This document shows positions 7,869 through 24,088 of a DNA stretch of 24,088 bases, one piece after another (the stretch's first letter is position 1; the number at the start of each line of letters is the position of its first letter). The position numbers and the translations under genes are program-made. The notes beneath the pieces are model-generated. The model was given only the letters and a program-made list of their open reading frames with translations. It was not told the origin of the DNA and made no database searches. The stretch covers positions 1 to 24,088 of the forward strand of contig NZ_QLIR01000025.1 in assembly GCF_003428155.1 (NCBI RefSeq), read 5' to 3'. This stretch comes from Fastidiosibacter lacustris. Its GTDB lineage: Bacteria > Pseudomonadota > Gammaproteobacteria > Francisellales > Francisellaceae.

Positions 7869-8590
7869 ATCAAACCTCCATTGACAGAGATAATTTGACG
7901 TGTGACATAGCTTGCAGCATCTGAACAAAGAAAATTAATCACTGAAGCCACTTCTTCTGCCTTCCCTGCGCGACGCATAGGAATATATTTTTCAATTTCA
8001 TCTTTATACTCCAGATCACTAGTCATGTTTGTTTCGATCAGACCAGGTGCGACGCAATTTACTGTAATTTTGCGTTTGGCAAGCTCTAGTGCCAAGGCCT
8101 TTGTTGCACCAATAATACCTGATTTTGCAGCACTATAATTAACCTGTCCTCTATTACCAGCTATCCCAGAAACGGAGGCCAAAGTAACAATTCTTCCTCC
8201 TTTTCTTAATTGAATCATCGGCATAATACAAGGCTTTAGTACATTATAAAATCCATCTAAATTGGTATGGATGATTTTATCCCACGCTTCTGCGTCCATC
8301 GCTGGGAAAGCCACATCTTCGCAAATGCCTGCATTGTTGACAATAGCATAAAACGCACCATTTCGAGCAATTTCTTGTTCTAATTTTGTAAAACAATCTT
8401 GTCTATTTTCAAGATTAAATTGGATCAAATTTGCTTGACCACCTTTGGTTTGTATCTCATCAATTGTATATCTTGCACCTTCCTCATCACGATTATAATG
8501 CACAACCAACTCAAATCCAGATTGCGCCAACATAATTGCTGTTGCTTGACCAATACCTTTACTTGCGCCTGTTACTAATACTCTTCTCAT
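7865..8590 (-). CDS. fabG: 3-oxoacyl-ACP reductase (SDR, FabG/ApeQ-like)
   Basis: 241-aa ORF. TGASKGIG cofactor motif, NNAG, and catalytic YSAAK. Embedded between a hotdog dehydratase and a KS. Confidence 0.85.
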   Translation of the reverse strand: MRRVLVTGASKGIGQATAIMLAQSGFELVVHYNRDEEGARYTIDEIQTKGGQANLIQFNLENRQDCFTKLEQEIARNGAFYAIVNNAGICEDVAFPAMDAEAWDKIIHTNLDGFYNVLKPCIMPMIQLRKGGRIVTLASVSGIAGNRGQVNYSAAKSGIIGATKALALELAKRKITVNCVAPGLIETNMTSDLEYKDEIEKYIPMRRAGKAEEVASVINFLCSDAASYVTRQIISVNGGLI

Positions 8591-9045
8591 TAAAACGTTT
8601 TCCCTTTAACAATTTGTTCGAATTCTTTAGCGCTTGGCTGATAAGCACTGAATTTTGCAGTTGCTATACATTTGCCATGCAGTTGAATTTGACACAAAAA
8701 CACACCAATTGGGTCAATGATCATTTCTTTATTAGCAATGATCGTTAGCATTTCACCTTTGGCAAACACAGATTGTTTTGTTTTGAAATTACGTACACTT
8801 ATCATGAAGCCACGCCTGGGTGTATGATCACTTTCGCTGCCTTCAAAATAAGCAAGTGCAGCTGATGCTTGCGCCATCATTTCAATACCTACCCAAGCAT
8901 ATATACCTTGAATTTGATAATCGTAAAAGACATGGTTTGCAGTAATTTTTGCTGTACATATCGCTTGCTCTTCATTTATATAATCCAATGAGTCAATCAA
9001 GCGCATTGGTGGACTTTGCGGGATGATTTCTGCTAAATGATACAT
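8590..9045 (-). CDS. Hotdog-fold 3-hydroxyacyl-ACP dehydratase-like protein (ApeP-like)
   Basis: 151-aa ORF. Pattern PQSPPMRLIDSL ... GIEMMAQASAA ... RGFMISVRNF is typical of the small stand-alone dehydratases found beside KS/KR genes. Its stop codon shares 1 nt with the fabG-like start codon. Confidence 0.6.
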   Translation of the reverse strand: MYHLAEIIPQSPPMRLIDSLDYINEEQAICTAKITANHVFYDYQIQGIYAWVGIEMMAQASAALAYFEGSESDHTPRRGFMISVRNFKTKQSVFAKGEMLTIIANKEMIIDPIGVFLCQIQLHGKCIATAKFSAYQPSAKEFEQIVKGKTF

Positions 9046-9048
9046 AAA

Positions 9049-10260
9049 TCATTCCTTACTCAATGATGTTTTAAACGACGAGTTTGCTGCAATAATTAGA
9101 CTTATATTATTACCACCAAAAGCAAAGGAGTTACTCATAAAATATGGTTTTTGCCAAATACTATTATCACCTGTTAATTTGATTTTGGGTAAATTTGGAT
9201 CAAAATTATCATTGCCAACTTGGGCAGGTAATTGTTTATCTGGATTATATTCAGTAGATAGTAAAAGCCAACATAAGCCCAATTCAGTTGCACTTGCTGC
9301 ACCCAAGGTGTGACCTGTTAATGGTTTAGTTGAACTACAATATACTTGATCAGTAAAAATATCAAAAATTGCTTTGCTTTCGATTTCATCATTTTTTTGT
9401 GTTGCTGTGCCATGTGTATTGATATATCCAATATCATCAGGGTTTAAATTTGCATCCTTTAATGCCTTTAGCATTGCCACTTTAGCTCCCATGCCTTCTG
9501 GATCAGGAGCGGTGATATGATACGCATCAGAAGTTTCTCCACCTCCGACAAATATTATTTCACTTTGATGTTTACTTAAGATAAAAAGTGACGCTCCTTC
9601 ACCAATGTTAATACCATCTCTATCAATCTGAAAAGGTTTACAAATATTAGAAGTCATTGAATCTAATGCATCAAAACCATTAAGTGGCACCTGTGATAAC
9701 GTATCTGAGCCACCTACAATACAAAGTTCACATATATTGGCCTCAATTAATCGCTTTGCCGCCATAAACGTTTTTCCACTAGATGAGCATGCTGTTGAAA
9801 TCGTATATATCGGTCCTTTAGCACCACAAAGATCAGCCACAAATTGTGCCATTTTGCCAAACTCTTGTTTGTGATAATGAAAACGCCTAGGCATAGCTTT
9901 AGTTTTAGCATGTACTATATAAGCTTGTTCACTTTCCAAAATACCAGCTGTACTAGTTCCAAGAATAACTGCAATGCGAGCAGGATTAATGCTGGCAGAC
10001 AAGCTTCGATAGTTTTTTTGGATTTGGCTAAATGCTGCTAACAGCATTCGATTGTTACGGCAATCAATCTTAGCATAACGCTTATCTAAAGCTGGTAATT
10101 CACAACTTACTTGACCAACGTAGGTTTTTCTACCACTAAAAAGCTGATCATATGGTTTTAAAGCTGTTTTATTTGTCAAAAGTGCACGTGCAATTTCTGC
10201 TTTATTACAACCTAAAGCATTGATAGCACCCATGTCATTAATATAAATTTTACTGTGCAT
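9049..10260 (-). CDS. Beta-ketoacyl synthase (KAS, ApeO/FabB-like)
   Basis: 403-aa ORF. Active-site Cys in ISTACSSSGKTF, His motifs NTHGTATQKND and TGHTLGAASA, C-terminal NSFAFGGNNISLI. Confidence 0.85.
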   Translation of the reverse strand: MHSKIYINDMGAINALGCNKAEIARALLTNKTALKPYDQLFSGRKTYVGQVSCELPALDKRYAKIDCRNNRMLLAAFSQIQKNYRSLSASINPARIAVILGTSTAGILESEQAYIVHAKTKAMPRRFHYHKQEFGKMAQFVADLCGAKGPIYTISTACSSSGKTFMAAKRLIEANICELCIVGGSDTLSQVPLNGFDALDSMTSNICKPFQIDRDGINIGEGASLFILSKHQSEIIFVGGGETSDAYHITAPDPEGMGAKVAMLKALKDANLNPDDIGYINTHGTATQKNDEIESKAIFDIFTDQVYCSSTKPLTGHTLGAASATELGLCWLLLSTEYNPDKQLPAQVGNDNFDPNLPKIKLTGDNSIWQKPYFMSNSFAFGGNNISLIIAANSSFKTSLSKE

Positions 10261-10264
10261 ACTC

Positions 10265-10849
10265 TTACACCAGTTTATGGAATAATGCCGAAGGTTGTGT
10301 CAAAAATTCTTCGATGAGTTCAAAGCTAACGTCAATGTTACTATAGGAGTGACCTTGACCTGTTTTTATATCGATGTGCGCACAGGCAAAGACCTGTTCT
10401 GCTAGATGAGCAGGTGTGATTGTATCATCTTGTTGTAACAGCAATAGATAATCATTCATGTGTTTAAGTTGCTTTGGCATGGCATTCACTAATGCCATTG
10501 CCTCGTGATACATATCGCTATATTGTGGCATTAAAGCAATCAAATCTAAGCGTGAAGCTGGATTGATTAAAATGACTTTGTCAATATCACTTCGCGTCTG
10601 TTTTAATAAATGCGCCATATAACCGCCTAGTGAGCTACCGATAATTACTTTACTATCAGCTTTAGCCTGAGATAAGAGTCGATCGATCATACTCATTGCT
10701 TGTTGTGTATTCATGGTTAAATGTGGCATGTCGATTTGAGCATTTGGATATTTTTGCTTAAACCATTGTTTAAGCTTTTGCGCTTTGGGTGAAGTCGGTG
10801 ACCCTTGAAAACCATGTAGATACAAAAAATATTTGCTTAGCTTACTCAT
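10265..10849 (-). CDS. Alpha/beta-hydrolase, YqiA-like esterase family
   Basis: LYLHGFQGSPTSPKA N-terminal motif and GSSLGGY nucleophile elbow. Start set at ATG 10849 (MSKLSKYF), preceded by AAGAGG and forming an ATGA overlap with the cmk-fusion stop. The track start at 10879 is probably an extension. Confidence 0.6.
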   Translation of the reverse strand: MSKLSKYFLYLHGFQGSPTSPKAQKLKQWFKQKYPNAQIDMPHLTMNTQQAMSMIDRLLSQAKADSKVIIGSSLGGYMAHLLKQTRSDIDKVILINPASRLDLIALMPQYSDMYHEAMALVNAMPKQLKHMNDYLLLLQQDDTITPAHLAEQVFACAHIDIKTGQGHSYSNIDVSFELIEEFLTQPSALFHKLV

Positions 10850-12555
10850 ATTGACCTCTTTGTGCTGATGTATTGCCAACAGTTAATCAGATGATAGCCT
10901 GTCGTTGATTTTACTTTATCAAAGGCAGCTTGCTCATTATGATCGATATACTCAATTGGTAAATCATTTGCTATAAACACCTTAGCAAAAATTTCAAATG
11001 CTGCTTCAAGTGTATTTTCTTGTTTTGTCATGGCAAGATAGCGCATGTATTCTAACATCGGCCAAATGCGATATTGTGTTTGATCATCTTTGTTATTCAA
11101 GTTACTGCGTACTAAGCCGTTAGCATTAACACCCTTTTGAGAGGCAGACAAAAATAATGCTTTATGATCGGGCATGAGTCCTACATCCACACCAAGTTCT
11201 AGTGCCTCCAAAATAAGTGCACTCCACTCAAAGCTATGACCTGGTTCAAAAACAACAGGTTGATATTCAATCGAATATTCACGCATCAGCATTTGCTTGT
11301 GATCAAAAAACAAAATAATGATTTGCTCATATAAAGCTTGTGCTTGATTTTTAAAAATATCACTTTTGGTATAGCGATAAGCACTTAAATAACTTTCAAA
11401 TAAGTGCATCAGCGCATTTTGACCAATTACACCTTGTGCATCCTTTAAGTTTTTAAATGCTTCACTTACAAACTTCTCTTGAATTAATTGATTCACCTTC
11501 AAAATATCCGCCAATAAATCTGTTTGTGTGTATTTTTGATATAAATGACTCAATGAGAAGAGTAAGAAAGCATATTCATAAGGATCACTAACGTTCCCAT
11601 CTTGAACAAATTTGTGCCAGCTTTGTGTTGAGTGATTCCAATAAAGTGCTTTTATCTGCTGATAAAGCTTAAAAGCCTTGTTCCACCCATCTTCTAGATT
11701 GTTTAAGCGCGCATAGGTTATTAAATAAAACATTCCCCTTGTTTGACATAATAGTCTTGTGTTGGCTTTGTTAACTAAATAAGGTTTGTCCAAAAATTCT
11801 GGTACATAACTAAGTGTATCGATATTTTTGACTAACAAGCCATAATAGGTTTTCTGCCACCGTTTAATATAGCTTAATCTATCTATACGTTTGATGTCGG
11901 TTAATACTTTATTAAAAACGCCATTGATATCCAAGTTACTAGTATCTACAACAATTGCATCATCTGCTGCTTTCAAGGGAGCTATTGCTCGATTCCTATC
12001 TTGCGCATCACGTGCTTGCAATTGCTCTAAAATCTCGTTGTAATCTGCTTTCTCAGCTTTAGCAACAAGTTCATCATAGCGTCGCTTTGCACGCACTTGA
12101 ATTTCTGCGTCTAAAAAAAACTTATATTGTGCATTTGGAAAGACAACTGTTCCCATGTCTCTTCCATCTGCAACCAAGCCCTTTACTCCTTTAGCAAAGT
12201 CTTTTTGGCACGCAAGCAAAGCTTCGCGCACAATAGGAATTTTTGCAATTTTAGATGCTATCATACCTGTTTTTTCTTCCCTGATTCGGTGGCTTACATC
12301 GACACCATTCAAATAAGCGGTTGTTTTATCATCTTCAATCTTAAAGTCAATATTTAAATTTTTTAAGGTGTGATATAAACGTTCTTCATTACAAAGATCT
12401 AACTGCTGATCCAAAACAAGTAATGCCGCTAGCCGATAAATGGCTCCACTATCTAACAAGGCGTAATCAAACTGCTTGGCTAACAAGCGTGATAACGTGC
12501 CTTTTCCCACTCCACTTGGACCATCAACTGTAATAATATCAACCTTATTTCCCAT
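10846..12555 (-). CDS. cmk: Cytidylate (CMP) kinase fused to a C-terminal AGE-superfamily (N-acylglucosamine 2-epimerase / sugar isomerase-like) domain
   Basis: N-terminal ~225 aa is a complete Cmk (ITVDGPSGVGKGT P-loop, LDSGAIYR, GRDMGTVVFP, RAKRRY). The remaining ~340 aa carry alpha/alpha-toroid AGE-type motifs (YEYAFLLFSLSHLY, NALMHLFESYL, EPGHSFEWSALILE, RIWPMLEYMRY). It is one uninterrupted ORF. ATG at 12555 is preferred (AGGAG 10 nt upstream) over the TTG at 12564. Confidence 0.75.
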   Translation of the reverse strand: MGNKVDIITVDGPSGVGKGTLSRLLAKQFDYALLDSGAIYRLAALLVLDQQLDLCNEERLYHTLKNLNIDFKIEDDKTTAYLNGVDVSHRIREEKTGMIASKIAKIPIVREALLACQKDFAKGVKGLVADGRDMGTVVFPNAQYKFFLDAEIQVRAKRRYDELVAKAEKADYNEILEQLQARDAQDRNRAIAPLKAADDAIVVDTSNLDINGVFNKVLTDIKRIDRLSYIKRWQKTYYGLLVKNIDTLSYVPEFLDKPYLVNKANTRLLCQTRGMFYLITYARLNNLEDGWNKAFKLYQQIKALYWNHSTQSWHKFVQDGNVSDPYEYAFLLFSLSHLYQKYTQTDLLADILKVNQLIQEKFVSEAFKNLKDAQGVIGQNALMHLFESYLSAYRYTKSDIFKNQAQALYEQIIILFFDHKQMLMREYSIEYQPVVFEPGHSFEWSALILEALELGVDVGLMPDHKALFLSASQKGVNANGLVRSNLNNKDDQTQYRIWPMLEYMRYLAMTKQENTLEAAFEIFAKVFIANDLPIEYIDHNEQAAFDKVKSTTGYHLINCWQYISTKRSI

Positions 12556-13588
12556 GGTATTCAAACTCCTGCATTACAGTAATAAATGCTTTTACTTCGT
12601 CTAATGTAATTGAATTGTATAGGCTTACTCGCACACCGCCTGTGCTTCTGTGTCCAGCAATGCCATAAACACCTTTCTCTCTAGCAAAATTTAAAAAGGC
12701 TGTAGTTTGATCCAAGCTTGGTAAATGAAAGACTACGTTCATTTTTGAACGTATTTCAGCTGCTATGAAATTATTAAATATTTTTGAGTCATCAATTGCT
12801 TTATATAAAAGCCTTGCCTTATGATTGTTGTTTTCAGCGACAATCGCTAAGCCGCCTTGTGCCAATAAATCTTGCAATACTAACTCAACTGATACCCAAG
12901 CAATCACGTCTGGTGTGTTATACAAAGAGTTTGTTTGTTGCATTGTTGCATAGTTTAATATCGCTGGAATACTTTGTTTGTCTTCATCAATCAAACTTTT
13001 TTTGATGATCACAACAGTGATACCTGGTAAGCCTATGTTTTTTTGAGCTCCAGCATAGACCAAATCGTATCGAGATATATCTGTTGGTTTTGACAGAAAA
13101 CTCGAAGACATATCGCAAACGAGTGGTGATGATGTATTGGGAATATAATGCCATTGTATGCCATCTATGGTTTCATTTTCAGTGTAATGGACATAATCAT
13201 ATTGAGAAGCTATTAAATCACTGGACTCTGTCATTGATAAGAGATCTACGGCAATAAATTTTTTGGCTTCTTTAATTGCTGCTTGTGACCAATAACCGCT
13301 GTTGATATAAAGGGCTTTACCACTTTTATTCAGGTTCATAGGGATTGCAGCAAACTGACCGCTAGCCCCCCCCGACATCAATAAAATTTCATAATCATTG
13401 CTTAAATTTAATAATTGAGTTAAATATTGTTTGATATTATGATTGACCTCTGCAAATAATTCGTCACGATGAGACAACGACAAAAGTGATAATTTTGTAC
13501 CTTTGTAATCATGAATCATCTGGATAAGTGATTGGTAAATATGGCTTTTAAGCTGTGCAGGTCCAGCACAAAAATTCATTGTATACAT
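12545..13588 (-). CDS. serC: Phosphoserine aminotransferase
   Basis: 347-aa ORF. MNFCAGPAQL N-terminus and a PLP-lysine region YAGAQKNIGLPGITVVII typical of SerC. serC-cmk neighbourhood as in other gammaproteobacteria. Confidence 0.88.
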   Translation of the reverse strand: MYTMNFCAGPAQLKSHIYQSLIQMIHDYKGTKLSLLSLSHRDELFAEVNHNIKQYLTQLLNLSNDYEILLMSGGASGQFAAIPMNLNKSGKALYINSGYWSQAAIKEAKKFIAVDLLSMTESSDLIASQYDYVHYTENETIDGIQWHYIPNTSSPLVCDMSSSFLSKPTDISRYDLVYAGAQKNIGLPGITVVIIKKSLIDEDKQSIPAILNYATMQQTNSLYNTPDVIAWVSVELVLQDLLAQGGLAIVAENNNHKARLLYKAIDDSKIFNNFIAAEIRSKMNVVFHLPSLDQTTAFLNFAREKGVYGIAGHRSTGGVRVSLYNSITLDEVKAFITVMQEFEYHGK

Positions 13589-14633: not shown

Positions 14634-14647
14634 ATAAACTTTAAGTT

Positions 14648-14693
14648 GTACAAGTTTAGACTCGACTTGACAGTTGCTTATTTTAAAACGCGA
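14648..14693. repeat. Left copy of the island-flanking imperfect direct repeat
   Basis: GTACAAGTTTAGACTCGACTTGACAGTTGCTTATTTTAAAACGCGA matches 23963-24009 at 41 of 46 aligned positions plus one 1-nt gap, aligned by hand. Weaker similarity extends to ~14641-14700 versus 23956-24020. Confidence 0.8.
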
Positions 14694-15061
14694 CGGCAGA
14701 ATTTAGAACTGTGAAAAATTTACACAGTCAATTGAACAGGTTTGGCTCATCTATTTTTATCTAAGTCTTGTGATTCTGTCATTACCAAGGTAAAGTGTCG
14801 GACTAATTACCAAGGGATTTTGTCGTGTTAATAGTATGGTCTGAATGCTATTGAGTCAACAAACTATTAGTAATAACCCTGACGTTATTAACCGAATCAT
14901 AAAAACTGGTAGTCCCTGCTTTTGTGGGTAACGTTTGACCTGTTTTTATCGTGTTCTCACCTATATAGGACTAGTGTTAAGGTCCGTGCTTCAGCAGTAA
15001 CGCAATACCTGATCTGACTATCCTGCTGCTTATTTATTCTCTACATACTTGAATTTAGGGG

Positions 15062-15091
15062 TTGACAGCCAATAATATTTCATGCTGAAAT
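15062..15091 (+). promoter_or_regulatory. Candidate promoter for the small ORF/operon (perfect TTGACA, weak -10)
   Basis: TTGACA at 15062-15067, then TGAAAT at 15086-15091 after an 18-bp spacer. A second perfect TTGACA at 15129-15134 has no usable -10. Pattern only. Confidence 0.2.
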
Positions 15092-15188
15092 TACTGTGGC
15101 GGGCAAGGAACTCTTAGCGACCGCTAGATTGACATTTTAAATTACCGCCGAAAGATGGTAATTTGAGGCATTACAATAAGGGGGATTT

Positions 15189-15368
15189 ATGAAATCAAGT
15201 GATAACCAAAAATTCGCGAAAGCTTCTAGTGATGACCCCGTTGTCTATCCACGTCATTTTGCTCCAGACTTTAAAGTCATGGGTGCTGGATCCACGCAGT
15301 GGCCACGGCATGCGAATCATGTATTGACAAGATCAGGTGTAACATCAGGATGTTTATCAAAAACATAG
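15189..15368 (+). CDS. Un-called 59-aa ORF, candidate precursor peptide of the radical SAM system
   Basis: ATG at 15189 preceded by TAAGGGGGA (15178-15186). Hand translation: MKSSDNQKFAKASSDDPVVYPRHFAPDFKVMGAGSTQWPRHANHVLTRSGVTSGCLSKT, stop TAG 15366-15368. One residue below the 60-aa cutoff the ORF track appears to use. Same strand as, and ~230 nt upstream of, the radical SAM gene. Confidence 0.5.
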   Translation: MKSSDNQKFAKASSDDPVVYPRHFAPDFKVMGAGSTQWPRHANHVLTRSGVTSGCLSKT

Positions 15369-15596
15369 TTATAACATTGATAGTTCGTTAGTATGGCAAC
15401 ATAATTAGCTAAAAAATAGTAGCCTGCGACGGGATCAACTATTCTCGCTAAAAAATTGATGAAAGTCTTATAAATAAGGGATTTTTGAATAAAACAGTTA
15501 CGAAAAAATACAAAGTGAGCATAATTGCATATCAAAGGATCTAAGACTGGATTTTCTGGTTGCGGGATATGTCTGGCTGTAAGGAGGGTTAGTGTA

Positions 15597-16286
15597 GTGC
15601 AACATGATATCTCAGAATATATTTCCCGTGATGAGCCTTTATTTAGTGCACCTGTTCACGTTGATTTTGATATGACAAATGCATGTAATCTGGCATGTCA
15701 TCACTGTCATGCTGCATCTGGTAGAAGACAGCATGATGAATTAACTTCAGATGAAATAAAACATGTGATCGCCGATTTGCATCAAAATGGTGTAATAGAC
15801 TTAACTATTGCTCGAGGTGAGCCATTTCTCAGACCTGATTTATCTGATATCTTAGAGTATGCTGATTCATGCCAAGGTATTTATACAACTGTAGTAACGA
15901 ATGGTACGCTTTTGAAGCGTGAAACAGTAAAAAAACTTTCCTCAAATTGCAGGGGCATAAATTTCAACATTAGTATTGATGGCTCCACTCCGGATAAGCT
16001 GGATATTCTTCGACACAGAAAAAAACGTGATAATGACAAAAAAAGACAGTTGTTTGCTCAGATTATTGATGATGCTAAAGCCATTTCGGATGCTGGACTT
16101 ACTCTCGGAGTTAGCTTTGTAGCCAGCGGAATGAATGCTGATGATCTTGAAAATGTTTACGATATGGCTGTTAATGAGCTAAGGGCGAAAAGTGTAACTG
16201 CAATACGTTTTTTTCCTGCCGGTTTTGGAAAGAATGCGTTAAACGAGCTGGTGCTAAAATATGAAAAGTGGGAAAAATTATTCTAA
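15597..16286 (+). CDS. Radical SAM enzyme, N-terminal (AdoMet radical core) fragment of a frame-disrupted rSAM/SPASM gene
   Basis: CX3CX2C cluster motif in DMTNACNLACHHCHA, then GEPFLRPD and VVTNGTLL. Likely start is GTG 15597, 9 nt after AGGAGG (15582-15587); the track start at 15525 is an extension. The frame ends at TAA 16284-16286 and the reading continues in the -1 frame. Confidence 0.8.
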   Translation: MQHDISEYISRDEPLFSAPVHVDFDMTNACNLACHHCHAASGRRQHDELTSDEIKHVIADLHQNGVIDLTIARGEPFLRPDLSDILEYADSCQGIYTTVVTNGTLLKRETVKKLSSNCRGINFNISIDGSTPDKLDILRHRKKRDNDKKRQLFAQIIDDAKAISDAGLTLGVSFVASGMNADDLENVYDMAVNELRAKSVTAIRFFPAGFGKNALNELVLKYEKWEKLF

Positions 16287-16774
16287 ATCTTACTAGAAGA
16301 CGTCATTCTTTCCAGAATCTCACCATTTCTGTTGCAGCTCCATGGGAAATATACCTTCCCCTACTGGAAAATGGCTACACACCTCAACAAGTGTGGGAAA
16401 TCTGGCAATATAAATCAATGCTAGCAGATCCCCTTTATTCATCAGCTTATCAGATCGGTGATTCGGGTGGGATTGGGGATTTGAATATCAGCGGTAATGG
16501 TAATGTATACCCTTCAGTTCTAATGTCAGGTAGCCATGACGTCCTATGCGGAAATATACGCAACCAGTCACTAAAATGGATATGGAATAACGCTAACCCT
16601 CTAAAGGAACTACGTAATATTCAACTTTCTAAAATTGGTGGTCCATGCGTTGACTGCCACATTCGTGATTTATGTGGTGCAGGCTCGCGCGCTCGCGCGC
16701 TTTCTCTGACAGGGAGTATATACGGACTTGATTATTGGTGCCCTGTCATTGCAAAAAATCTCAAGGAGATATAA
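16268..16774 (+). CDS. SPASM-domain C-terminal fragment of the same radical SAM enzyme
   Basis: GNGNVYPSV..LCGNIRNQSLKWIWNN followed by PCVDCHIRDLCGAGSRARA and YWCP. This is the CX2CX5C...C auxiliary Fe-S pattern of SPASM/twitch domains. The frame is open only from 16265, so the join to the upstream fragment lies in 16265-16283. Confidence 0.75.
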   Translation: MGKIILNLTRRRHSFQNLTISVAAPWEIYLPLLENGYTPQQVWEIWQYKSMLADPLYSSAYQIGDSGGIGDLNISGNGNVYPSVLMSGSHDVLCGNIRNQSLKWIWNNANPLKELRNIQLSKIGGPCVDCHIRDLCGAGSRARALSLTGSIYGLDYWCPVIAKNLKEI

Positions 16775-16776
16775 TT

Positions 16777-17085
16777 ATGTTACTGTATTCCAAAGAAAAT
16801 AGTACCATGCGTCTGCTGGAAAGATGCTATGGCGCCGAATTAAGGTATAATCGTCAGGTATTTTTTGCCAATAATGATTTAACAAAAATTATCAAATTTG
16901 TTATTAAAACATCTGGTTGTGATTACCCTCCGTCGTATAGTAGTCAATCATGGGTAGATGAAAAAACTGTACGTGACACATTGCATAAACTTTCAGATGC
17001 AGGTATTCCACTTTCATTTTGGGGTGAGTTTTGGAGTAATACTGAAGTTTTGTCAGCCAATCATAGTTTGAAGATAGATTTATGA
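16777..17085 (+). CDS. Small PqqD/RRE-like protein (putative precursor-peptide recognition element)
   Basis: 102 aa from ATG 16777 (AAGGAG 8 nt upstream; 2 nt after the SPASM stop). The size, the position next to the rSAM gene, and the pattern of beta-strand residues followed by helices (NNDLTKIIKFVIK ... VDEKTVRDTLHKLSDAGIPL) resemble PqqD/MftB-type domains. Assignment is by resemblance only. Confidence 0.45.
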   Translation: MLLYSKENSTMRLLERCYGAELRYNRQVFFANNDLTKIIKFVIKTSGCDYPPSYSSQSWVDEKTVRDTLHKLSDAGIPLSFWGEFWSNTEVLSANHSLKIDL

Positions 17086-17969
17086 CGGTTTTTTCATTTG
17101 CCAGAAAGATAGGGGATGCGTTGTACCGTGAGTGGGGAGAGATAAACTTTGATGTTATATCATTTCCTAGTCTTGCATATAATTCCATAACATCGTCAAA
17201 GCCAGAAACAGAAATTAATGTGTTTGATATTCCATTTTCATTATTAAGAGTGAATCAAATACCAAAGCAAAGAGTTAATAACGGATCGTTATTTGGTCAG
17301 CCACCACTCACCCTGTACGTGGCAGAAGACAAACGATTCTTTATTGAAATTTATTTATGGTCATCTGTTGATATGACTATCCATGATCATCCATTTTCAG
17401 GTGCTTTTACGGTACTAGAGGGAGTTTGCCAGCATGATTCATATCTTTTTGAGAGATCAGGTGGTTCCAATCAGCTACAGATGGGGAGCCTGATTTTTAA
17501 AGAAACCGAGCTAATGTCAAAAGGCGACTGCAGAATGATTTTTAATGGTGACCGTCTTATCCACAGAAATCTTCATTTGTCGAAACCAACAGTTACTTTT
17601 ATTATCAGAACCTATCGTGATCTAGGTCTCACTGGTAGAATCTATGAAGAGTCAGGACTTGCTATTGCGCCAGACCTGACAATTGCAGAGCAGAAATTTT
17701 TGGATTATCTTGATGGAGTGTTACGACTGAACAACTACGATACAGCTTTACGGATGATACAGTCTCTTATAAGCTCTGGTTTTAGTGATTTTGCTAAATA
17801 TCATTCTGCAAAGGTCTATCTAGAACAGACCCGACGTTATAACGAAGTAGAATCTATTTCTGACATGCTTGCGTCATCCATACCTGATGTTACTTCTGAT
17901 TTTTTCAGAAAGACTTTCCTGCTTCAGATAGAGCCCATTCTGAGTGGTGAGTCCTATACAACGTACTGA
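17082..17969 (+). CDS. Cupin-fold metalloenzyme, thiol dioxygenase-like (cysteine dioxygenase / PCO-ADO type His motif)
   Basis: 295-aa ORF with an ATGA overlap to the upstream gene. TIHDHPFSGAFTVLEG resembles the HxHP..m..f.vLyG motif of cysteamine/plant-cysteine oxidases. A further His cluster LIHRNLH lies ~57 residues downstream as a candidate third metal ligand. Confidence 0.4.
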   Translation: MTVFSFARKIGDALYREWGEINFDVISFPSLAYNSITSSKPETEINVFDIPFSLLRVNQIPKQRVNNGSLFGQPPLTLYVAEDKRFFIEIYLWSSVDMTIHDHPFSGAFTVLEGVCQHDSYLFERSGGSNQLQMGSLIFKETELMSKGDCRMIFNGDRLIHRNLHLSKPTVTFIIRTYRDLGLTGRIYEESGLAIAPDLTIAEQKFLDYLDGVLRLNNYDTALRMIQSLISSGFSDFAKYHSAKVYLEQTRRYNEVESISDMLASSIPDVTSDFFRKTFLLQIEPILSGESYTTY

Positions 17970-17980
17970 CAGGAGGCTTA

Positions 17981-18943
17981 ATGATAACAAAATCTACATT
18001 GCTCGAACTGTACAAAACTGCTTTTATTATTCGTACCGTAGATCAAAAAATTGATGAAGGACTCAGAAATAATCATTTTTTTGCACTGCATTACCCTGTT
18101 AAAGGGCAAGAGCTCATTTCTGCATCTTTAGGTGTCAATAAATATCCTGGGGACAAAATTGTTTCTACTTATCGATGTCTTGGTGACCTCATCGGATTTG
18201 GTGGTTCATATTATTCTTATTTCGCTGAAATTATGGGGAAAAAGGATGGAATATCCGGTGGCAAAGGTGGATGCATGCATCTGTGTTCGACTGAAAACGG
18301 GTTGCTAGCTACAACAGGAATAGTGGGAGGTGGACTGCCAATAGCATGTGGTGTCGCACTATCAGTGCAGACAGATGGCAACGACAATATTGTCTTTGTT
18401 ACCTTTGGAGATGGTGCCACAACAACCGGTGCGTATCATGAAGCAATGAACCTTGCGGGATTATGGAAGCTGCCCATACTGTTTATCTGTATCAATAATG
18501 AATATGCACTGCATACTAGGCTTAGCCGTATAACTACAAATACCGAGCTTTATACAAAAGTAGATGTGTATGGTATCCGCGCCTTCAGAGCAGTAGTAAG
18601 CGAGCCTGAGAAGTTGCATATTACTGTGACTAAGTGTGTGGAATTTGTTCGAGACACTGGTGAACCTATATTTCTTGAAATATCCTGCCCTCGTCTTCAC
18701 GGACATATGACAGGCAGCAACACTGAATACATGAACTTGCCTGCTGACGATGAAATGTTTCAGGTAGATCCACTTATGCTGTTTAGAAAGCAAGTCGTCA
18801 GGGAATATGACAGCAACAACCAACTGGAAAGTATTGAATATCAGATTATTAATGATGTCTCCGCTTCCTATAACAAAGCATTAAATGCTCCCCTTCCTGA
18901 TAATCAGGATCTATTGAAAGAGATTACAAAATATACAACATGA
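17981..18943 (+). CDS. Thiamine-diphosphate-dependent 2-oxoacid dehydrogenase E1 component, alpha subunit
   Basis: 320-aa ORF with AGGAGG SD. GQELISASLG and the TPP-binding motif FGDGATTTGAYHEAMNLAGLWKLPILFICINNEYA. Confidence 0.85.
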   Translation: MITKSTLLELYKTAFIIRTVDQKIDEGLRNNHFFALHYPVKGQELISASLGVNKYPGDKIVSTYRCLGDLIGFGGSYYSYFAEIMGKKDGISGGKGGCMHLCSTENGLLATTGIVGGGLPIACGVALSVQTDGNDNIVFVTFGDGATTTGAYHEAMNLAGLWKLPILFICINNEYALHTRLSRITTNTELYTKVDVYGIRAFRAVVSEPEKLHITVTKCVEFVRDTGEPIFLEISCPRLHGHMTGSNTEYMNLPADDEMFQVDPLMLFRKQVVREYDSNNQLESIEYQIINDVSASYNKALNAPLPDNQDLLKEITKYTT

Positions 18944-19968
18944 AAAGAGCACATGAACTATCGACTTCTCTGATGACTTTCGCTGAAGCTCTGAACAGCG
19001 CACTCGATTATGCACTACAAACTAATCCGGACGTTATTTTACTTGGAGAAGATATTGGCATACCATCAGGTGGAATTTACAGAGTGACGCAGGGACTGGA
19101 AGAGTGCTATGGTGCAAGAAGAGTGATAACAACTCCTATTTCTGAGCAGGGTATTATTGGTATGGGGATCGGTCTCGCTCTTTGCGGGAAGCGACCAGTG
19201 GTTGAAATCATGCTTATGGACTACCTGACAATTGCTTCAGATCAGCTTATTAATCATGCTGCCAAATTTAGGTACACAACAAATGGAGCCAGCCATGTTC
19301 CGCTTACGGTCAGAATGCATGTCGGAGGGGGAACAATGGGTGGAGCTCAGCATTCCCAGTCCCTTGAAGCCTGGCTGACGCATACTCCAGGTCTTAACGT
19401 TATTATGCCTTCCACTCCTGAAGATGCCAAGGGGTTATTATTATCCTGTATAAACAATGATGATCCATGCATCATGCTGGAATGCGTAGAGCTGCTCTGG
19501 TCTGGAGACAGGCATCCTGTTCCAACAGGTGCTCACCAAATACCTTTGGGGAAAGCACGAATTATGAAAGTAGGTGATGATATCAGCCTAATTGCTTACG
19601 GGAGATCGGTTGCCTGGTGTCTTCGTGCGGCTGAACTGGCTAGACAGCGCTTAGGGATTAGCTGTGAAATTATTGATTTGAGGAGTCTTGTGCCTCTTGA
19701 TTTAGACTTAATATTGAACTCTGTAAAAAAAACACGTAGAGCACTTATTGCTCATGCAGCTAGTAAGTTCTGTGGGTATGGGGCTGAAATTGCTTGCCAG
19801 ATCACGGAGTCCTTGCATGCTTGCCTTCATCATCATGTTGTTCGTGTGGGTAGTCTTACGAGTCCTGCCCCCTATTCTATGTTTTTGGAAAAGCAGCACA
19901 TGCCAGATGAAAGTCGTATTTTTGATAAAATAATGGATATCTTTGGTATTACAGGAAATGACAGATGA
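18940..19968 (+). CDS. 2-oxoacid dehydrogenase E1 component, beta subunit (transketolase-like pyrimidine-binding and C-terminal domains)
   Basis: 342-aa ORF with an ATGA overlap to the alpha subunit. LLGEDIG, PISEQGIIGMGIGLALCGKRPVVEIM, QHSQSLEAW, and a C-terminal IDLRSLVPLD motif. Confidence 0.85.
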   Translation: MKRAHELSTSLMTFAEALNSALDYALQTNPDVILLGEDIGIPSGGIYRVTQGLEECYGARRVITTPISEQGIIGMGIGLALCGKRPVVEIMLMDYLTIASDQLINHAAKFRYTTNGASHVPLTVRMHVGGGTMGGAQHSQSLEAWLTHTPGLNVIMPSTPEDAKGLLLSCINNDDPCIMLECVELLWSGDRHPVPTGAHQIPLGKARIMKVGDDISLIAYGRSVAWCLRAAELARQRLGISCEIIDLRSLVPLDLDLILNSVKKTRRALIAHAASKFCGYGAEIACQITESLHACLHHHVVRVGSLTSPAPYSMFLEKQHMPDESRIFDKIMDIFGITGNDR

Positions 19969-20645
19969 TACAGGGCTCTTCATTGCTCAGACTACCAGGA
20001 ATGGGAGGACTACTTGTGGGTTATGCTTTATCTGTTATTGCAGACACATCGGTATATATCGTATTTGCGGTTTGGGCAAAGCAGTTAACTGGAAGTACAG
20101 CTGGAGCAGGACTTGTGTTTTTTTGCTTTATAATACCTTCATTAATCAGTCCCTTGACTGGAAACATTATTGACCACTTCAGGAAAGATAGCACTATTGT
20201 ATTAATTAATCTTTTCATGGCGGCATCAATACTGAGTCTCTATTTTTCTCATGAGCAGCATCAGTACATTTTGCTGCTTGTGTCGGCCTTTATATATGGA
20301 CTTGGTTATGTAATATTCAATTCAGCACGAGTCTGCCTTGTTGTGAACAGCTATGATGAACAGCATATCGGACAAATAAATGCCTTGCTGAGAACACTGA
20401 GAGAATCTGTGAGGCTGGTAGCTCCTTTATTCGGAGTGTATGTCTATACTGTTTTTGGAAATCATGTTTTCGTTTGGTTTGTGAGTTTATCTCTAATTTT
20501 GTCTGCCTTTCTTTTTCTAAATTTTGAAAAAAAGAGCAATGACTATAGCACAGGTAAAGTTTCACTATTTTCGCTACGTGGACTCTGGAATGGAGCTCAG
20601 GGTATATGGTATGACACTATGACACACTTATTCGCTCCTGTGTGA
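19965..20645 (+). CDS. MFS transporter (EntS/MFS_3-like exporter), N-terminal fragment of a frame-disrupted gene
   Basis: ATGA overlap with the E1 beta stop. Consecutive hydrophobic helices and the LTGSTAGAGLVFF..PSLISPLTGNIIDHFRK motif typical of EntS-like exporters. Stops at TGA 20643-20645 and continues in the -1 frame. Confidence 0.7.
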   Translation: MIQGSSLLRLPGMGGLLVGYALSVIADTSVYIVFAVWAKQLTGSTAGAGLVFFCFIIPSLISPLTGNIIDHFRKDSTIVLINLFMAASILSLYFSHEQHQYILLLVSAFIYGLGYVIFNSARVCLVVNSYDEQHIGQINALLRTLRESVRLVAPLFGVYVYTVFGNHVFVWFVSLSLILSAFLFLNFEKKSNDYSTGKVSLFSLRGLWNGAQGIWYDTMTHLFAPV

Positions 20646-21163
20646 TTTGTCTTTCAATTACGCTTCTGGTTGCTGGATTTTATGAAATTATCCTTTTTAA
20701 CATCATTGATTACCTGCATCAACCGCTATCTCTCATCGGAAAGTTTATTTCTGCACAAGGAGTCGGGGCAGTGATGGGAGGGTTACTCTCCATAAGACTG
20801 ATAAAGCAGGTCTCACCCGGAATACTAGTCTCAGTGGGTTTTTTTATTCAAGTAGTATTTGCCCAGAACATCCCCTTAATTTATATCAGCTGTGCAATTT
20901 TTGGTTTTGGCGCGCCAGTTTCCATGGTGGGACTGGACACTATGATCCAAACGAAACTTCCTTCTGCCATTCAGGGGAGAGTCAATACTTCACTGGAAGC
21001 CATTACCAGCATTCCGTTTTCCCTATCATTTCTAGTTTCAACTCTTATGACCATTGTGGTTTCCTATAAAATTATGCTGTTTTGTATGGTTGTAGTGACT
21101 ACTTCTGCTGCCTGTTTCCTTTTACTGATGATCAGAAAGGTGAGAAATTACAATGACTCTTAA
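20642..21163 (+). CDS. MFS transporter, C-terminal fragment
   Basis: 173 aa made almost entirely of TM helices. The frame is open only from 20615. The two fragments together give ~399 aa, the size of a 12-TM MFS protein. Confidence 0.7.
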   Translation: MICLSITLLVAGFYEIILFNIIDYLHQPLSLIGKFISAQGVGAVMGGLLSIRLIKQVSPGILVSVGFFIQVVFAQNIPLIYISCAIFGFGAPVSMVGLDTMIQTKLPSAIQGRVNTSLEAITSIPFSLSFLVSTLMTIVVSYKIMLFCMVVVTTSAACFLLLMIRKVRNYNDS

Positions 21164-21224
21164 TAATTTTTACGATTTTTACTTTGCTTGAACTGTTAAA
21201 AGTCATATCTGGAGATGAAGAATA

Positions 21225-22094
21225 ATGAAACAAGAAAAGAAGTGGTATTGTCGCAAAGTCAGGCCAACTGCAATGCCACAGCATATTCTTAATGATGGAA
21301 TAAAAATCCCTTTAATTGGTCTTGGTACATATCAACAACCACGCTCATCGCTGATGAATGTATTATTTTCGGCCGTTGAAGACGGTTATCGGTTATTTGA
21401 TACGGCATCAATTTATGATAATCAGAAAATTATTGGTCATTTCATTAAGAGTGTCCCAGTTAATCGACATGAACTATTCATTACAAGTAAAGTCTGGAAT
21501 AGTGATCACGAAAATGTTATCTCCTCAATTAAAAAATCGCTGGATGAGCTTCAGACGGATTACCTTGATCTTTGCCTGATACACTGGCCTGCAACGAAAG
21601 ACGGTAACTTTATCAGAGCGTGGGAATCATTAATTAGGTTACGAGAAAAAAGCCTGATCAGAAGCATAGGGGTCAGTAATTTTACTGCCCAGCAGGTAAG
21701 TTTCCTCTTCGAGGTTACAGGTATCCTGCCAGCAGTAAATCAGATCGAAATACATCTCAGGAATCAGCAGCAAAATATTATTCTGGAAATGTCAGAACTA
21801 GGGATTTTTGTCCAGTCATGGAGTCCTTTATGGACAGGTGATTTGACAGAAACTGAATATTCACGGCTTGCCGGAATGGCGCTGAAGCACAATAAAACAA
21901 TAACCCAGATAATCCTTAGGTGGCATATAGAAAATGGATTTGGTGTAATACCAAAAACTTCACAAGTGGGCAGGTTACTGGAAAACATAAGCATTTTTGA
22001 TATAGAGCTAGACTTAGACTCCGATGATTTGATTTTTTTATCTTTACTCAATATGGATAAGAAGATTATGGAATATCCTGATGACTATGTCTGA
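21225..22094 (+). CDS. Aldo-keto reductase (2,5-diketo-D-gluconate reductase-like AKR)
   Basis: GIKIPLIGLGTYQ, DTASIYDNQ (catalytic Asp/Tyr), TSKVWN (Lys), LCLIHWP (His). GGAGA SD upstream of ATG 21225. An internal start at 21273 (MPQHILNDG) is also possible. Confidence 0.85.
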   Translation: MKQEKKWYCRKVRPTAMPQHILNDGIKIPLIGLGTYQQPRSSLMNVLFSAVEDGYRLFDTASIYDNQKIIGHFIKSVPVNRHELFITSKVWNSDHENVISSIKKSLDELQTDYLDLCLIHWPATKDGNFIRAWESLIRLREKSLIRSIGVSNFTAQQVSFLFEVTGILPAVNQIEIHLRNQQQNIILEMSELGIFVQSWSPLWTGDLTETEYSRLAGMALKHNKTITQIILRWHIENGFGVIPKTSQVGRLLENISIFDIELDLDSDDLIFLSLLNMDKKIMEYPDDYV

Positions 22095-22306
22095 TTATGG
22101 CAAAAACTAGATCGCCCGCAAGAAATGGAGGGCTCTGCAAGAAACCCCGTTACATACCAAGGATAGAAGTTAACATTTACCTTTAAACTTGGAAATTTGC
22201 CAAACTTTGCCTCTCAACGAGCAATTAGGAGTCATAGTCATGTTACTATGTTTTTTAGAAACCATTTACATTAAGAGCAAAATAATAAAAAATTATAGGT
22301 GTACTT

Positions 22307-23119
22307 GTGAAGAGTTATAATGATTATGATGCTATAGGTTATGAGAATTCATTAGAAATTGATCACAATAAATCCATGCTAATTGAAGACAGGCAGTTCA
22401 TTAGTTTAGACTGGTCAAAGGTATCCTGCCAAAAGAATATTACCTTTAAAAGGTGTCGTATTCTCAACTCCAACTTCAAGCACGCAAGGTTACATGAACT
22501 GAAGGTTATTGAGTGTGAGATATATAACTGTGATTTTTCACACGCAACTCTAGATGATGCAATTTTTGAAAGAAGTATATTCTATGACAAAGATAATGCA
22601 GTTGGATGTTCGTTCTATAGAGCTGATCTATTAAGATCTCAATTTAATTACTGTAATATCTCAGTAAGTGATTTTGAGCGTGCGGATGCTTTTCAAATTA
22701 CCATAAATAACTGCAAGGCTCAGGGTTGCAATTTTAAATTTACAAATTTCACCAATGTAGTTAGTCGAACGAAAATCTTTAGTTGCGCAGAATTAACAAA
22801 TAGTGATTTTAGGTATTCAGACTTGACTGGTGTATATCTAGCAAAATGTGATCTATCAGGAAGTAAATTAGTTTCGGTGATACTTTCAAGAGTAAATTTA
22901 GAGGAAGCAGATTTAACGAGCACGGACTTTTCACCCAGTCAATATGATGGGATAAAACTACATAAAGCAGATCTAAGGAATTCCAATATTGCTAATATAG
23001 ATATTAAATATATAGATTTTTCTGGGGTGAAAATATTTGAGTGGCAACAAAGCATATTTATGGAAAGTCTAGGTATACTGGTTTTCCCTGAAGGAAAGGA
23101 TGGTTTGAATGGACACTAA
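22307..23119 (+). CDS. Pentapeptide-repeat protein
   Basis: 270-aa ORF (GTG start, AGGTG upstream). A long run of A(D/N)LxX-type five-residue repeats, e.g. CDFSHATLDDAIFERS, YRADLLRSQFNYCNISVSDFERADAF, SDFRYSDLTGVYLAKCDLSGSKLVSVILSRVNLEEADLTSTDFS, KADLRNSNIANIDI. Confidence 0.85.
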   Translation: MKSYNDYDAIGYENSLEIDHNKSMLIEDRQFISLDWSKVSCQKNITFKRCRILNSNFKHARLHELKVIECEIYNCDFSHATLDDAIFERSIFYDKDNAVGCSFYRADLLRSQFNYCNISVSDFERADAFQITINNCKAQGCNFKFTNFTNVVSRTKIFSCAELTNSDFRYSDLTGVYLAKCDLSGSKLVSVILSRVNLEEADLTSTDFSPSQYDGIKLHKADLRNSNIANIDIKYIDFSGVKIFEWQQSIFMESLGILVFPEGKDGLNGH

Positions 23120-23319: not shown

Positions 23320-23962
23320 ATGGATGAATCTCCGATCTTATCTGTTGAAGAAATTGCCTTTTGTCTGACAAAGAAAAGTCCGTTAAACCAAATTGCATGT
23401 GCAATTATGCTGGGGTGTTTTAAAATACACATTAGGTTCCCCTTGTCTGATGAAGCTCCATTACTTCTCAAGTTGTCTTCAAAAGTTTCGGCTGAATTAG
23501 AGCTAGAACAACAGAATATTTTTGAGTTTGATTGGAGTAGTCGTACCGCAGAAAGGTATCGCAACAATATTAGACAGCTGCTAGGCTATAGAGAAGCTAC
23601 AAATGAGGATGCCTCACCATACATTAATTATTTGCAAAATGAGTATTACCAAAATTCCCTTCCAAAGAGATTATATTGGCGCAGTCACGTTTATATTTTG
23701 AACGGCATAAAATTGAGCAATTCTCCGTAAAACAAATAAACCGTTATATAATTTCAGCACAGCAACAATTTGAGCAATCCTTCTTTCAAAGTATTTTTGA
23801 TAACTTAACGCCAGACGATTGTTTTTTGATTGATCAAATTCTTACAACCAGTACTGAGAAAATTAAAATTGAGAAGGTAAAGGGCGACGATATTAATTTA
23901 GCCATAAAAAAGATTGAACAACTCAGTAAAATGAAGCTTCCCAAACATGTATATATTAATAT
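23320..23962 (+). pseudogene. tnpA: Tn3-family transposase remnant: N-terminal (DUF4158-type) ~215 codons only, frameshifted and 3'-truncated
   Basis: Two overlapping frames (23320-23730 and 23676 onward). They carry Tn3-type N-terminal patterns (LSVEEIAFC..., DWSSRTAERYRNNIRQLLGYREAT, then INRYIISAQQQFEQSFFQSI..LTPDD). Full Tn3-family transposases are ~1000 aa. The reading frame runs into the flanking repeat at ~23963. Confidence 0.65.
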
Positions 23963-24009
23963 GTATAAGTTTAGACTTGACCTGACAGTTGCCTATTTTT
24001 CAAACGCGA
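23963..24009. repeat. Right copy of the island-flanking imperfect direct repeat
   Basis: GTATAAGTTTAGACTTGACCTGACAGTTGCCTATTTTTCAAACGCGA; see the left copy at 14648-14693. Confidence 0.8.
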
Positions 24010-24016
24010 TTTTTGT

Positions 24017-24088
24017 CAGATATGGTTGAGCAATTCAACCTTCTCTTGCCAGTGCGTTTTCCCATCAGTAAAAGTTGCTATTGGTGTT
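24017..24088 (-). CDS. 3' end of an unidentified CDS continuing beyond the window
   Basis: The reverse-strand frame is open from the window edge to TGA (24019-24017): ...TPIATFTDGKTHWQEKVELLNHI. Too short to name. It would be convergent with the OMP gene if the island is removed. Confidence 0.3.

Follow-up and report, generated by a model that had tools for sequence, protein, structure and literature searches.

What pathway is encoded by the string of genes at positions 15189-23119 of a contig from Fastidiosibacter lacustris, and whether that pathway can still run, are the questions raised by this locus. The window analyzed is the whole contig, at its length of 24,088 bp. An earlier note, made from the letters alone, had proposed an undescribed-looking operon for a ribosomally made, post-translationally modified peptide (RiPP), consisting of a small precursor, a radical S-adenosylmethionine (SAM)/SPASM-type maturase, a small partner protein, and several tailoring genes. 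The RiPP assignment holds, but the operon is not undescribed, as its core corresponds to WprA, WprB, and WprC, which were characterized from Xenorhabdus littoralis (sp.) psl in 2025 (Khan et al., ACS Chem Biol, PMC11851443), with a second study in 2026 (Haedar et al., Commun Chem, PMC12957482), and the radical SAM protein of the window is 83% identical to WprB. The region is very probably a wpr-type RiPP cluster that was horizontally acquired from a Xenorhabdus-like source and recently inactivated. It represents a degenerate wpr copy in an unexpected host, in which an already published core is joined by conserved companion enzymes.

The nine genes, all located on the plus strand, and the features associated with them are as follows.

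15189..15368, + strand: wprA, decayed gene for a precursor peptide of 59 amino acids (aa), from alignment with intact three-repeat homologues
15360..15377, + strand: remnant of the third MAWPRH core unit, with a nonsense mutation and several substitutions, from DNA alignment
15597..16774, + strand: wprB, radical SAM cyclophane synthase, frameshifted into open reading frames (ORFs) 15597-16286 and 16268-16774, from Pfam, NCBIfam, and 83% aa identity to X. littoralis WprB
16777..17085, + strand: wprC, small WprB partner of 102 aa, 71% identical to the 97-aa X. littoralis protein P0146
17082..17969, + strand: 3-His cupin with a predicted thiol-dioxygenase-like fold, 295 aa, intact, from an AlphaFold model, Foldseek, and invariant His residues
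17981..18943, + strand: thiamine pyrophosphate (TPP)-dependent 2-oxoacid dehydrogenase E1α-like subunit, 320 aa, intact, from Pfam E1_dh and a PDB match
18940..19968, + strand: E1β-like subunit, 342 aa, intact, from Pfam Transket_pyr and Transketolase_C and PDB matches to the E1β of pyruvate dehydrogenase (PDH) and branched-chain 2-oxoacid dehydrogenase
19965..21163, + strand: major facilitator superfamily (MFS) transporter gene, disrupted into ORFs 19965-20645 and 20642-21163, from Pfam MFS_1 in two halves
21225..22094, + strand: aldo-keto reductase (AKR), likely true start 21273, from Pfam Aldo_ket_red and 81% nucleotide identity to a Xenorhabdus AKR
22307..23119, + strand: Qnr-like pentapeptide-repeat protein (PRP), 270 aa, GTG start at 22307, from Pfam Pentapeptide and 165 bits on the NCBIfam Qnr model
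23320..24029, + strand: broken N-terminus of a Tn3-family transposase (DUF4158), two overlapping ORFs at the contig end, from a domain scan

The gene layout given in the earlier note is exact, including the ATGA stop/start overlaps at 17082-17085, 18940-18943, and 19965-19968 and the 2-nt gap between the wprB stop and the wprC start (TAA-tt-ATG at 16772-16779). Shine-Dalgarno-like sites were recovered upstream of wprA, wprB, wprC, E1α, and the AKR gene, but none is clear upstream of the PRP start at 22307. Every domain named there is borne out by Pfam or NCBIfam, the Pfam matches comprising Radical_SAM, SPASM, E1_dh, Transket_pyr with Transketolase_C, MFS_1 (two halves), Aldo_ket_red, and Pentapeptide, while neither database returned a match for the 59-aa, 102-aa, or 295-aa ORF. 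At least 10 further loci, spread over four lineages, carry the same gene set in the same order, which indicates that the gene string is more than a product of chance.

The frameshift-repaired radical SAM protein was searched against 5.8 billion proteins, with matches in X. littoralis (83% identity), in other Xenorhabdus, Photorhabdus, and Salmonella (61-73%), in a second tier at 41-47%, and at no more than 30% elsewhere. The neighborhoods of these homologues contain the same genes in the same order as the window, including the conserved small ORF and the co-occurring tailoring genes that had been named as the test of the operon. The X. littoralis locus (L089) was found by way of its cupin homologue, and a full-text search on 'WPRH' returned both wpr papers. 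Positions 15598-21140 of the window are colinear with this locus at 82% nucleotide identity, and the aa identities amount to 83% for WprB, ~70-71% for WprC, 81% for the cupin, 82% for E1α, 86% for E1β, 82% for the MFS protein, and 78% for the AKR. This identity and colinearity, together with the retention of R12 and R23 in WprC, place the core in the characterized family. Intact clusters are present in Xenorhabdus, Photorhabdus, and a plasmid-like Salmonella element.

In the characterized system, WprB and the 97-103-aa WprC join Trp-C5 to Arg-Cγ in each of the three WprA WPR motifs, yielding three-residue cyclophanes; WprB needs WprC, in which R12 and R23 matter, W→F, R→K, and R→F variants of the WprA motif are left unprocessed, and WprB lacks the Aux I cysteines (PMC11851443). 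In Streptomyces venezuelae, WprA2B2C2 are accompanied by an S9 protease, WprP2, which cuts after WPR and frees peptides, at least ~12 residues long, that end with the cross-linked WPR (PMC12957482). The cupin, E1α/β, AKR, MFS, and PRP genes receive no discussion in the main text of either paper. The cross-link is established for the X. littoralis and S. venezuelae enzymes, and its assignment to the window would follow from orthology.

The window enzyme is orthologous to WprB, carries the CX3CX2C motif (CNLACHHC), and ends in a SPASM/twitch-type domain without Aux I cysteines. Its C-terminal half contains five Cys residues only (one isolated, a CX2CX5C group, and one distal), with Ser replacing the fourth SPASM Cys. 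The best NCBIfam match of the N-terminal half is MftC, at 98 bits against a cut-off of 265; no equivalog cut-off was reached for MftC, PqqE, or AhbD/NirJ, and the others score lower than MftC relative to their cut-offs. A sulfatase-maturase or heme-type role for the enzyme was also considered and ruled out by these scores set against the 83% identity to WprB. The partner protein, with its 102 aa, falls within the WprC size range, and R12 and R23 are conserved in alignments. No match to PqqD (PF05402) was obtained even at E=10, either with the single protein or with a six-sequence profile, and profile searches against PDB and Pfam gave chance-level matches only; a WprC model by AlphaFold2 (AF2), built from three sequences only, reached a mean predicted local distance difference test (pLDDT) score of 48, too low for judging a winged-helix fold. 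The RRE-like (RiPP recognition element) call of the earlier note for this protein was not confirmed by these searches. The absence of similarity between WprC and PqqD is likewise reported by the wpr authors (PMC11851443).

A small precursor gene encoding a WPR motif lies directly upstream of wprB. The conserved precursor core is (S)MAWPRH in up to three copies, and intact homologous precursors contain three SMAWPRH repeats, the Salmonella precursor being MKTNISPEFVSAGSESMAWPRHAVSDLIALNTNSMAWPRHAEPALTKVESSSMAWPRHYIPSV. The window WprA retains YPR at 15246-15254 (VVYPRH) and WPR at 15300-15308 (TQWPRH), the Trp of the first motif now being Tyr. Alignment of the precursor genes at the DNA level shows that wprA now terminates at what used to be the third-motif Trp codon (TAG, 15366-15368), and that the third core unit has changed from ATG GCA TGG CCA CGC CAT to AAA ACA TAG TTA TAA CAT. 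Cys is absent from the intact WprA of Salmonella, Photorhabdus, three Xenorhabdus species, the JGI loci, a second proteobacterial-like lineage (L086/L087), and a Vibrio metagenome-assembled genome (MAG), and the single Cys of the window WprA arose by an AGT→TGT (Ser→Cys) change inside the decayed third-repeat remnant. Around the gene, a 550-bp non-coding stretch (14640-15188) precedes wprA, and the wprA-wprB spacer (15369-15596) measures ~230 bp versus ~86 bp where the cluster is intact; neither stretch yielded an RNA family or a repeat. The Vibrio sp. MAG (L012, 9882-9938) encodes a 19-aa precursor, MKKLKVIKTTSSPWPRAKR, followed by a radical SAM gene, a WprC-like gene, a cupin gene, and an MFS gene only, and this minimal wpr-type cluster would offer a useful system for asking what the cupin does.

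Four independent lesions show that the window copy has decayed. In wprB, one nucleotide has been lost from an A-run at 16273-16277 (A6 to A5), and adding one A restores an ORF of 392 aa that reads ...KYEKWEKIILNLTRRR..., matching KYEEWEKIILDLTRRH of WprB1. The same gene encodes G73R in the GGE motif, which reads IAGGEPF in 13 of 13 homologues and IARGEPF in the window, carries 10 singleton substitutions at columns otherwise invariant in ten enteric-type sequences (versus 1 in the sister sequence), and is ~10 aa short at the C-terminus. The MFS gene contains a perfect 8-bp tandem duplication, TATGACAC occurring twice at 20610-20625, and dropping one copy restores a 396-aa protein that aligns with intact homologues across the junction. 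The nonsense mutation in wprA is the fourth lesion. With wprB and the MFS gene frameshifted, the GGE motif of wprB changed to RGE, the third core of wprA lost, and its first Trp replaced by Tyr, the pathway cannot run in the window. Both frameshifts alluded to in the earlier note are real features of the sequence, in the wprB A-run and at the MFS duplication; the note treated them as something to be mended, and taken together with the other lesions they show a pseudogenized cluster. As a separate observation, the MFS duplication looks like a replication-slippage mutation and not a homopolymer error.

The timing of inactivation was addressed through substitution rates. Five other genes are full length. 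Relative to Xenorhabdus, the synonymous divergence (dS) is 0.63-0.74 and the ratio of nonsynonymous to synonymous divergence (dN/dS) is 0.11-0.29, which indicates that most of the divergence accumulated under purifying selection and that the inactivation is therefore recent. Comparison with Photorhabdus is saturated (dS>1.6), so that the Xenorhabdus comparison alone is informative.

The setting of the cluster fits horizontal acquisition, as the left flank consists of chromosomal housekeeping genes (hemA, prfA, prmC, dapF, serC, and others), the right flank is a Tn3-family remnant, and the GC content of the island is above that of its flanks. The DUF4158 remnant at 23320..24029 marks the edge of the mobile island. 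The transposase remnant is itself a second pseudogene at this edge, and the contig ends inside it. The AKR gene, found in enteric-type clusters and the window only, is located upstream of the cluster and divergent in Xenorhabdus and is relocated and inverted in the window, where it aligns in inverted orientation with L089 7916-7106 at 81% nucleotide identity (78% aa identity, dS 0.74). Elsewhere, two Salmonella enterica loci (L001 and L002) carry an intact cluster in a plasmid-like context with KfrA, CcdA/CcdB, a Rep3 replication protein, and integrases, indicating that the cluster is mobile among enterobacteria.

Among the genes that accompany wprABC, the cupin is the most widespread WprB companion. 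Only 24 relatives of it were found among the 5.8 billion proteins, and each one for which the context was checked lies on a contig with a WprB homologue. The cupin accompanies WprB in enteric-type loci, in L086/L087 (45% WprB identity), in the Vibrio MAG, and in S. venezuelae, whereas no cupin match was found in the DNA examined near four distant WprB-like loci (~38-40% identity: Gemmatimonadota, Kribbella, Streptomyces sp., and Gandjariella). Residues H101, H103, H161, and H165 are invariant in the alignment. The AF2 model (pLDDT 89.7) adds ~60 helical residues at the N-terminal side and ~100 at the C-terminal side, and the top 50 Foldseek matches are mostly thiol dioxygenases at E ~1e-7, including cysteine dioxygenase (CDO), 3-mercaptopropionate, mercaptosuccinate, and ergothioneine dioxygenases, cysteamine dioxygenase (ADO), and plant cysteine dioxygenase (PCO). 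At the level of the predicted fold, the description of this protein as a thiol-dioxygenase-like cupin was correct. No Pfam or NCBIfam family matched it at E≤0.01, CDO_I and PCO_ADO included; a profile search against PDB reached no better than E=0.48, to 3-mercaptopropionate dioxygenase, and exact-sequence look-ups of the window cupin and of protein P0001 returned no record.

The E1α/β pair carries the canonical TPP and active-site motifs. The best PDB match of E1α is human PDH E1α, with the GDG..NN and HGH motifs present in the alignment, and both subunits score under the NCBIfam equivalog cut-offs (228 against 394 and 289 against 321). E1α belongs to an isolated clade, with representatives at 56, 45, 41, 37, and 36% identity followed by generic proteins at ~30%, and no E2 or E3 gene lies beside the pair in any locus examined. 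The pair is found in enteric-type clusters and in L086/L087 but not in Vibrio, and its slot is taken by the S9 protease in Streptomyces.

The window PRP meets Pfam Pentapeptide families and scores 165 bits on the NCBIfam Qnr model (NF033086), with a cut-off of 240, and the PRPs of the enteric clusters score 186-239 bits on the same model and match QnrB1 structures at 1e-44. The PRPs of L086/L087 score ~40-50 bits, and are thus pentapeptide-repeat proteins but not clearly Qnr-like. A PRP of ~200 aa recurs near the cluster in three arrangements, namely downstream and convergent in the enterics, upstream and divergent in L086/L087, and ~6.5 kb away in a Gemmatimonadota MAG. The window PRP shares only 29% identity with that of X. 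littoralis and is not its orthologue; it is a separate gene, which may be a replacement or may lie there by coincidence. A literature search combining RiPP, radical SAM, pentapeptide repeat, and gyrase returned nothing relevant. In the X. littoralis locus (L089 17362-19776), gyrB lies ~2.6 kb beyond the Qnr-like PRP gene; this is not so in the Photorhabdus, X. bovienii, or Salmonella loci, and the proximity is therefore probably a chromosomal coincidence.

From these features, a pathway for the intact clusters can be sketched, in which each step after the first is suggested by conservation and fold. WprB, assisted by WprC, would cross-link Trp-C5 to Arg-Cγ at the WPR motifs, as in the orthologous characterized system. 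The 3-His cupin may then carry out an O2-dependent oxidation of the cross-linked peptide, and the proteobacterial E1α/β may attach or remove a small carbon unit by way of a TPP intermediate derived from a 2-oxoacid. For the latter step, the favored form has a C2 unit from a 2-oxoacid passed on to a carbonyl made by the cupin, by analogy with deoxysugar-branching E1-like pairs. E1 pairs of the AviB1/B2 and AlmDI/DII type add C2 branches to sugars; a literature search for the aldgamycin precedent gave no usable citation. The AKR would reduce the resulting carbonyl, the MFS pump would export the product, and the Qnr-like PRP might protect the DNA gyrase or topoisomerase of the producer, as suggested by the recurrence of PRPs and by the precedents McbG and AlbG. 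These two proteins confer immunity in the gene clusters for microcin B17 and albicidin, both of which are gyrase poisons. The export and self-protection roles suggested in the earlier note for the MFS and PRP genes are reasonable readings of their sequences, and its view that the tailoring genes belong to the cluster is confirmed by their conservation with wprABC in other lineages. The complete proposal, in which the cupin matures the WPR unit, the proteobacterial orphan E1α/β and the AKR follow in a RiPP tailoring without precedent, the exported product targets gyrase or topoisomerase IV, the adjacent Qnr-like PRP serves as dedicated immunity, and the Fastidiosibacter copy is a fossil of this pathway, is tentative and less likely than not.

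Several points weigh against the interpretation given here of the cluster and its pathway. The 1-nt deletion in wprB falls within a homopolymer and may reflect an error in sequencing, and both frameshifts are known from the assembled sequence alone. The YPR site may never have been a substrate of WprB, because WprB1 rejects the Trp→Phe variant (PMC11851443). The adjacency of the window PRP could be a coincidence, given its low identity and lack of orthology to the enteric PRP. The roles of the cupin, E1α/β, and AKR are suggested by conservation and fold alone, and a literature search for RiPP together with TPP or pyruvate dehydrogenase found no earlier case of RiPP tailoring by a TPP-dependent E1.

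These considerations leave room for other explanations of the locus. If the frameshifts were sequencing or assembly artifacts and the two-motif precursor a working variant, the operon would be intact and functional, which would agree with a wprB lesion of one base in an A5/A6 homopolymer, with five full-length genes, and with the low dN/dS relative to Xenorhabdus. An 8-bp tandem duplication in the MFS gene, however, is untypical of base-calling error, the wprA stop is a mutated Trp codon within a third motif of which the remainder is also substituted, and the G73R change affects a motif invariant across 13 homologues in an enzyme that is also truncated at its C-terminus, so that a functional operon is unlikely. 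The gene neighborhood could also be explained by chance, the cupin, E1α/β, AKR, MFS, and PRP genes being unrelated neighbors of wprABC that are linked to it only by genomic context and mentioned in the main text of neither wpr paper. This is very improbable in view of the overlapping stop/start codons, an order kept from 83% down to 45% WprB identity, a cupin family of 24 members of which all those examined are wpr-linked, an E1α clade isolated from generic E1, and a PRP that recurs in three different positions and orientations.

The nature of the product allows two further alternatives. The cluster might make a peptide-derived redox cofactor resembling pyrroloquinoline quinone (PQQ) or mycofactocin, with the cupin oxygenating the Trp-Arg unit to a quinone-type cofactor and E1α/β and the AKR acting as its clients. 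The combination of a peptide, a radical SAM enzyme, a small chaperone, and an oxygen-dependent enzyme parallels PqqA/E/D with PqqB/C, MftC is the best NCBIfam match for the N-terminal half of the radical SAM enzyme, the E1 pair is without E2/E3 partners in all loci examined, and the precursor repeats could yield several product units per peptide. Nevertheless, every score on a cofactor-family hidden Markov model (HMM) is far under its cut-off, the Streptomyces S9 protease releases peptides of ~12 or more residues and not a small molecule (PMC12957482), no E1 is present there, and an MFS pump with Qnr-like PRPs better suits an exported toxin, all of which makes a cofactor decidedly unlikely. 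Least credible of all is the route of the earlier note, in which the cupin oxidizes the single Cys of the precursor, E1α/β handles a 2-oxoacyl group, and the AKR reduces it. The modeled cupin fold does resemble cysteine, cysteamine, and plant cysteine dioxygenases, a group that includes enzymes working on the N-terminal Cys of peptides, but the route fails because the window Cys derives from Ser in a degenerate tail and intact WprA is without Cys in all lineages compared; Pfam CDO_I and PCO_ADO do not match the cupin either. The inactivated wpr-type cluster thus stands as the preferred reading of the window.

Outside the cluster, tRNA and Rfam scans gave no match in the region, the sole match being a 5S rRNA gene at 9-123 (79 bits) at the contig start; the contig start probably coincides with the tail end of an rRNA operon, and this would account for the break in the assembly. 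Promoter and terminator scans produced no more matches than in shuffled sequence. On the minus strand at 10846-12564, a 572-aa ORF encodes both a complete cytidylate kinase domain and an N-acylglucosamine 2-epimerase-like domain, representing either an unusual fusion or a missed stop or frameshift. Also on the minus strand, at 6630-10260, genes for a short-chain reductase (KR) and an ApeP-like dehydratase lie between two ketoacyl synthase genes; all of them look like part of an aryl-polyene-type or similar lipid cluster and adjoin dapF and a succinylglutamate desuccinylase/aspartoacylase-like gene.

That a RiPP cluster of the Xenorhabdus type passed into a Thiotrichales bacterium and has begun to decay there is ordinary genome biology, and the comparative by-product is of more use than the window itself. 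Of the nine genes, three are treated in the published wpr studies. The comparison suggests that the mature wpr product bears more tailoring than has been reported, and that it may act on gyrase or a related topoisomerase. If this is true, a Qnr-like PRP serving as a dedicated immunity factor would give a natural ligand for Qnr-type proteins. For the roles of the companion genes, the intact copies of Xenorhabdus, Photorhabdus, or Salmonella are the best place to look.

Comparison with known systems places the individual components at different distances. The cupin is predicted to share with the thiol dioxygenases (CDO, 3-mercaptopropionate dioxygenase, ADO, and PCO) a cupin fold with an HxH...H triad, and it differs from them in its 10-19% identity, the lack of a Pfam family match, and the helical N- and C-terminal extensions; the wpr precursors are also without a conserved thiol, and the substrate could be a free small-molecule thiol. 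The window and enteric PRPs next to wpr clusters resemble the gyrase-protecting Qnr, McbG, and AlbG proteins, with 165-239 bits on the Qnr model, whereas all wpr-adjacent PRPs fall under the 240-bit equivalog cut-off and their link to gyrase would be one of analogy. PQQ (PqqA/E/D) and mycofactocin (MftA/B/C) biosynthesis likewise use a small peptide, a radical SAM/SPASM-type enzyme, a small chaperone, and a side-chain C-C bond, with later steps that depend on oxygen or oxidoreductases; the wpr system departs from both in HMM scores under the cut-offs, a WprC without similarity to PqqD, repeated cores, and a different accessory set.

Closer in chemistry is the tryglysin (WGK) system WgkA/B/C of streptococci, where an aromatic-X-basic three-residue motif is cross-linked by a radical SAM/SPASM enzyme with a small partner, and WgkB is the best NCBIfam match for the C-terminal half of the window enzyme (78 bits, cut-off 650). 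WprB, in contrast, is 28% identical to WgkB, forms a single Trp-C5 to Arg-Cγ bond, and is without Aux I cysteines (PMC11851443). The S. venezuelae wpr cluster has the precursor, the radical SAM enzyme, the small partner, a cupin homologue (41% identity), and the MFS transporter in common with the window, but places its S9 protease between the cupin and the MFS gene, in the slot of the proteobacterial E1α/β, and contains neither AKR nor PRP. The X. littoralis wpr cluster is the nearest relative. It differs in that the window host is a Thiotrichales bacterium and not an enterobacterium, in that the window wprA has two motifs (one of them YPR) instead of three and stops at a mutated Trp codon, in the frameshifted window wprB and MFS genes and the GGE→RGE change, in the AKR gene, which is upstream and divergent there and downstream and codirectional in the window, and in the non-orthologous Qnr-like PRP of the window. 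The two clusters share the gene order from wprB to the MFS gene, the (W/Y)PRH motifs of the precursor, and the conserved R12 and R23 of WprC.

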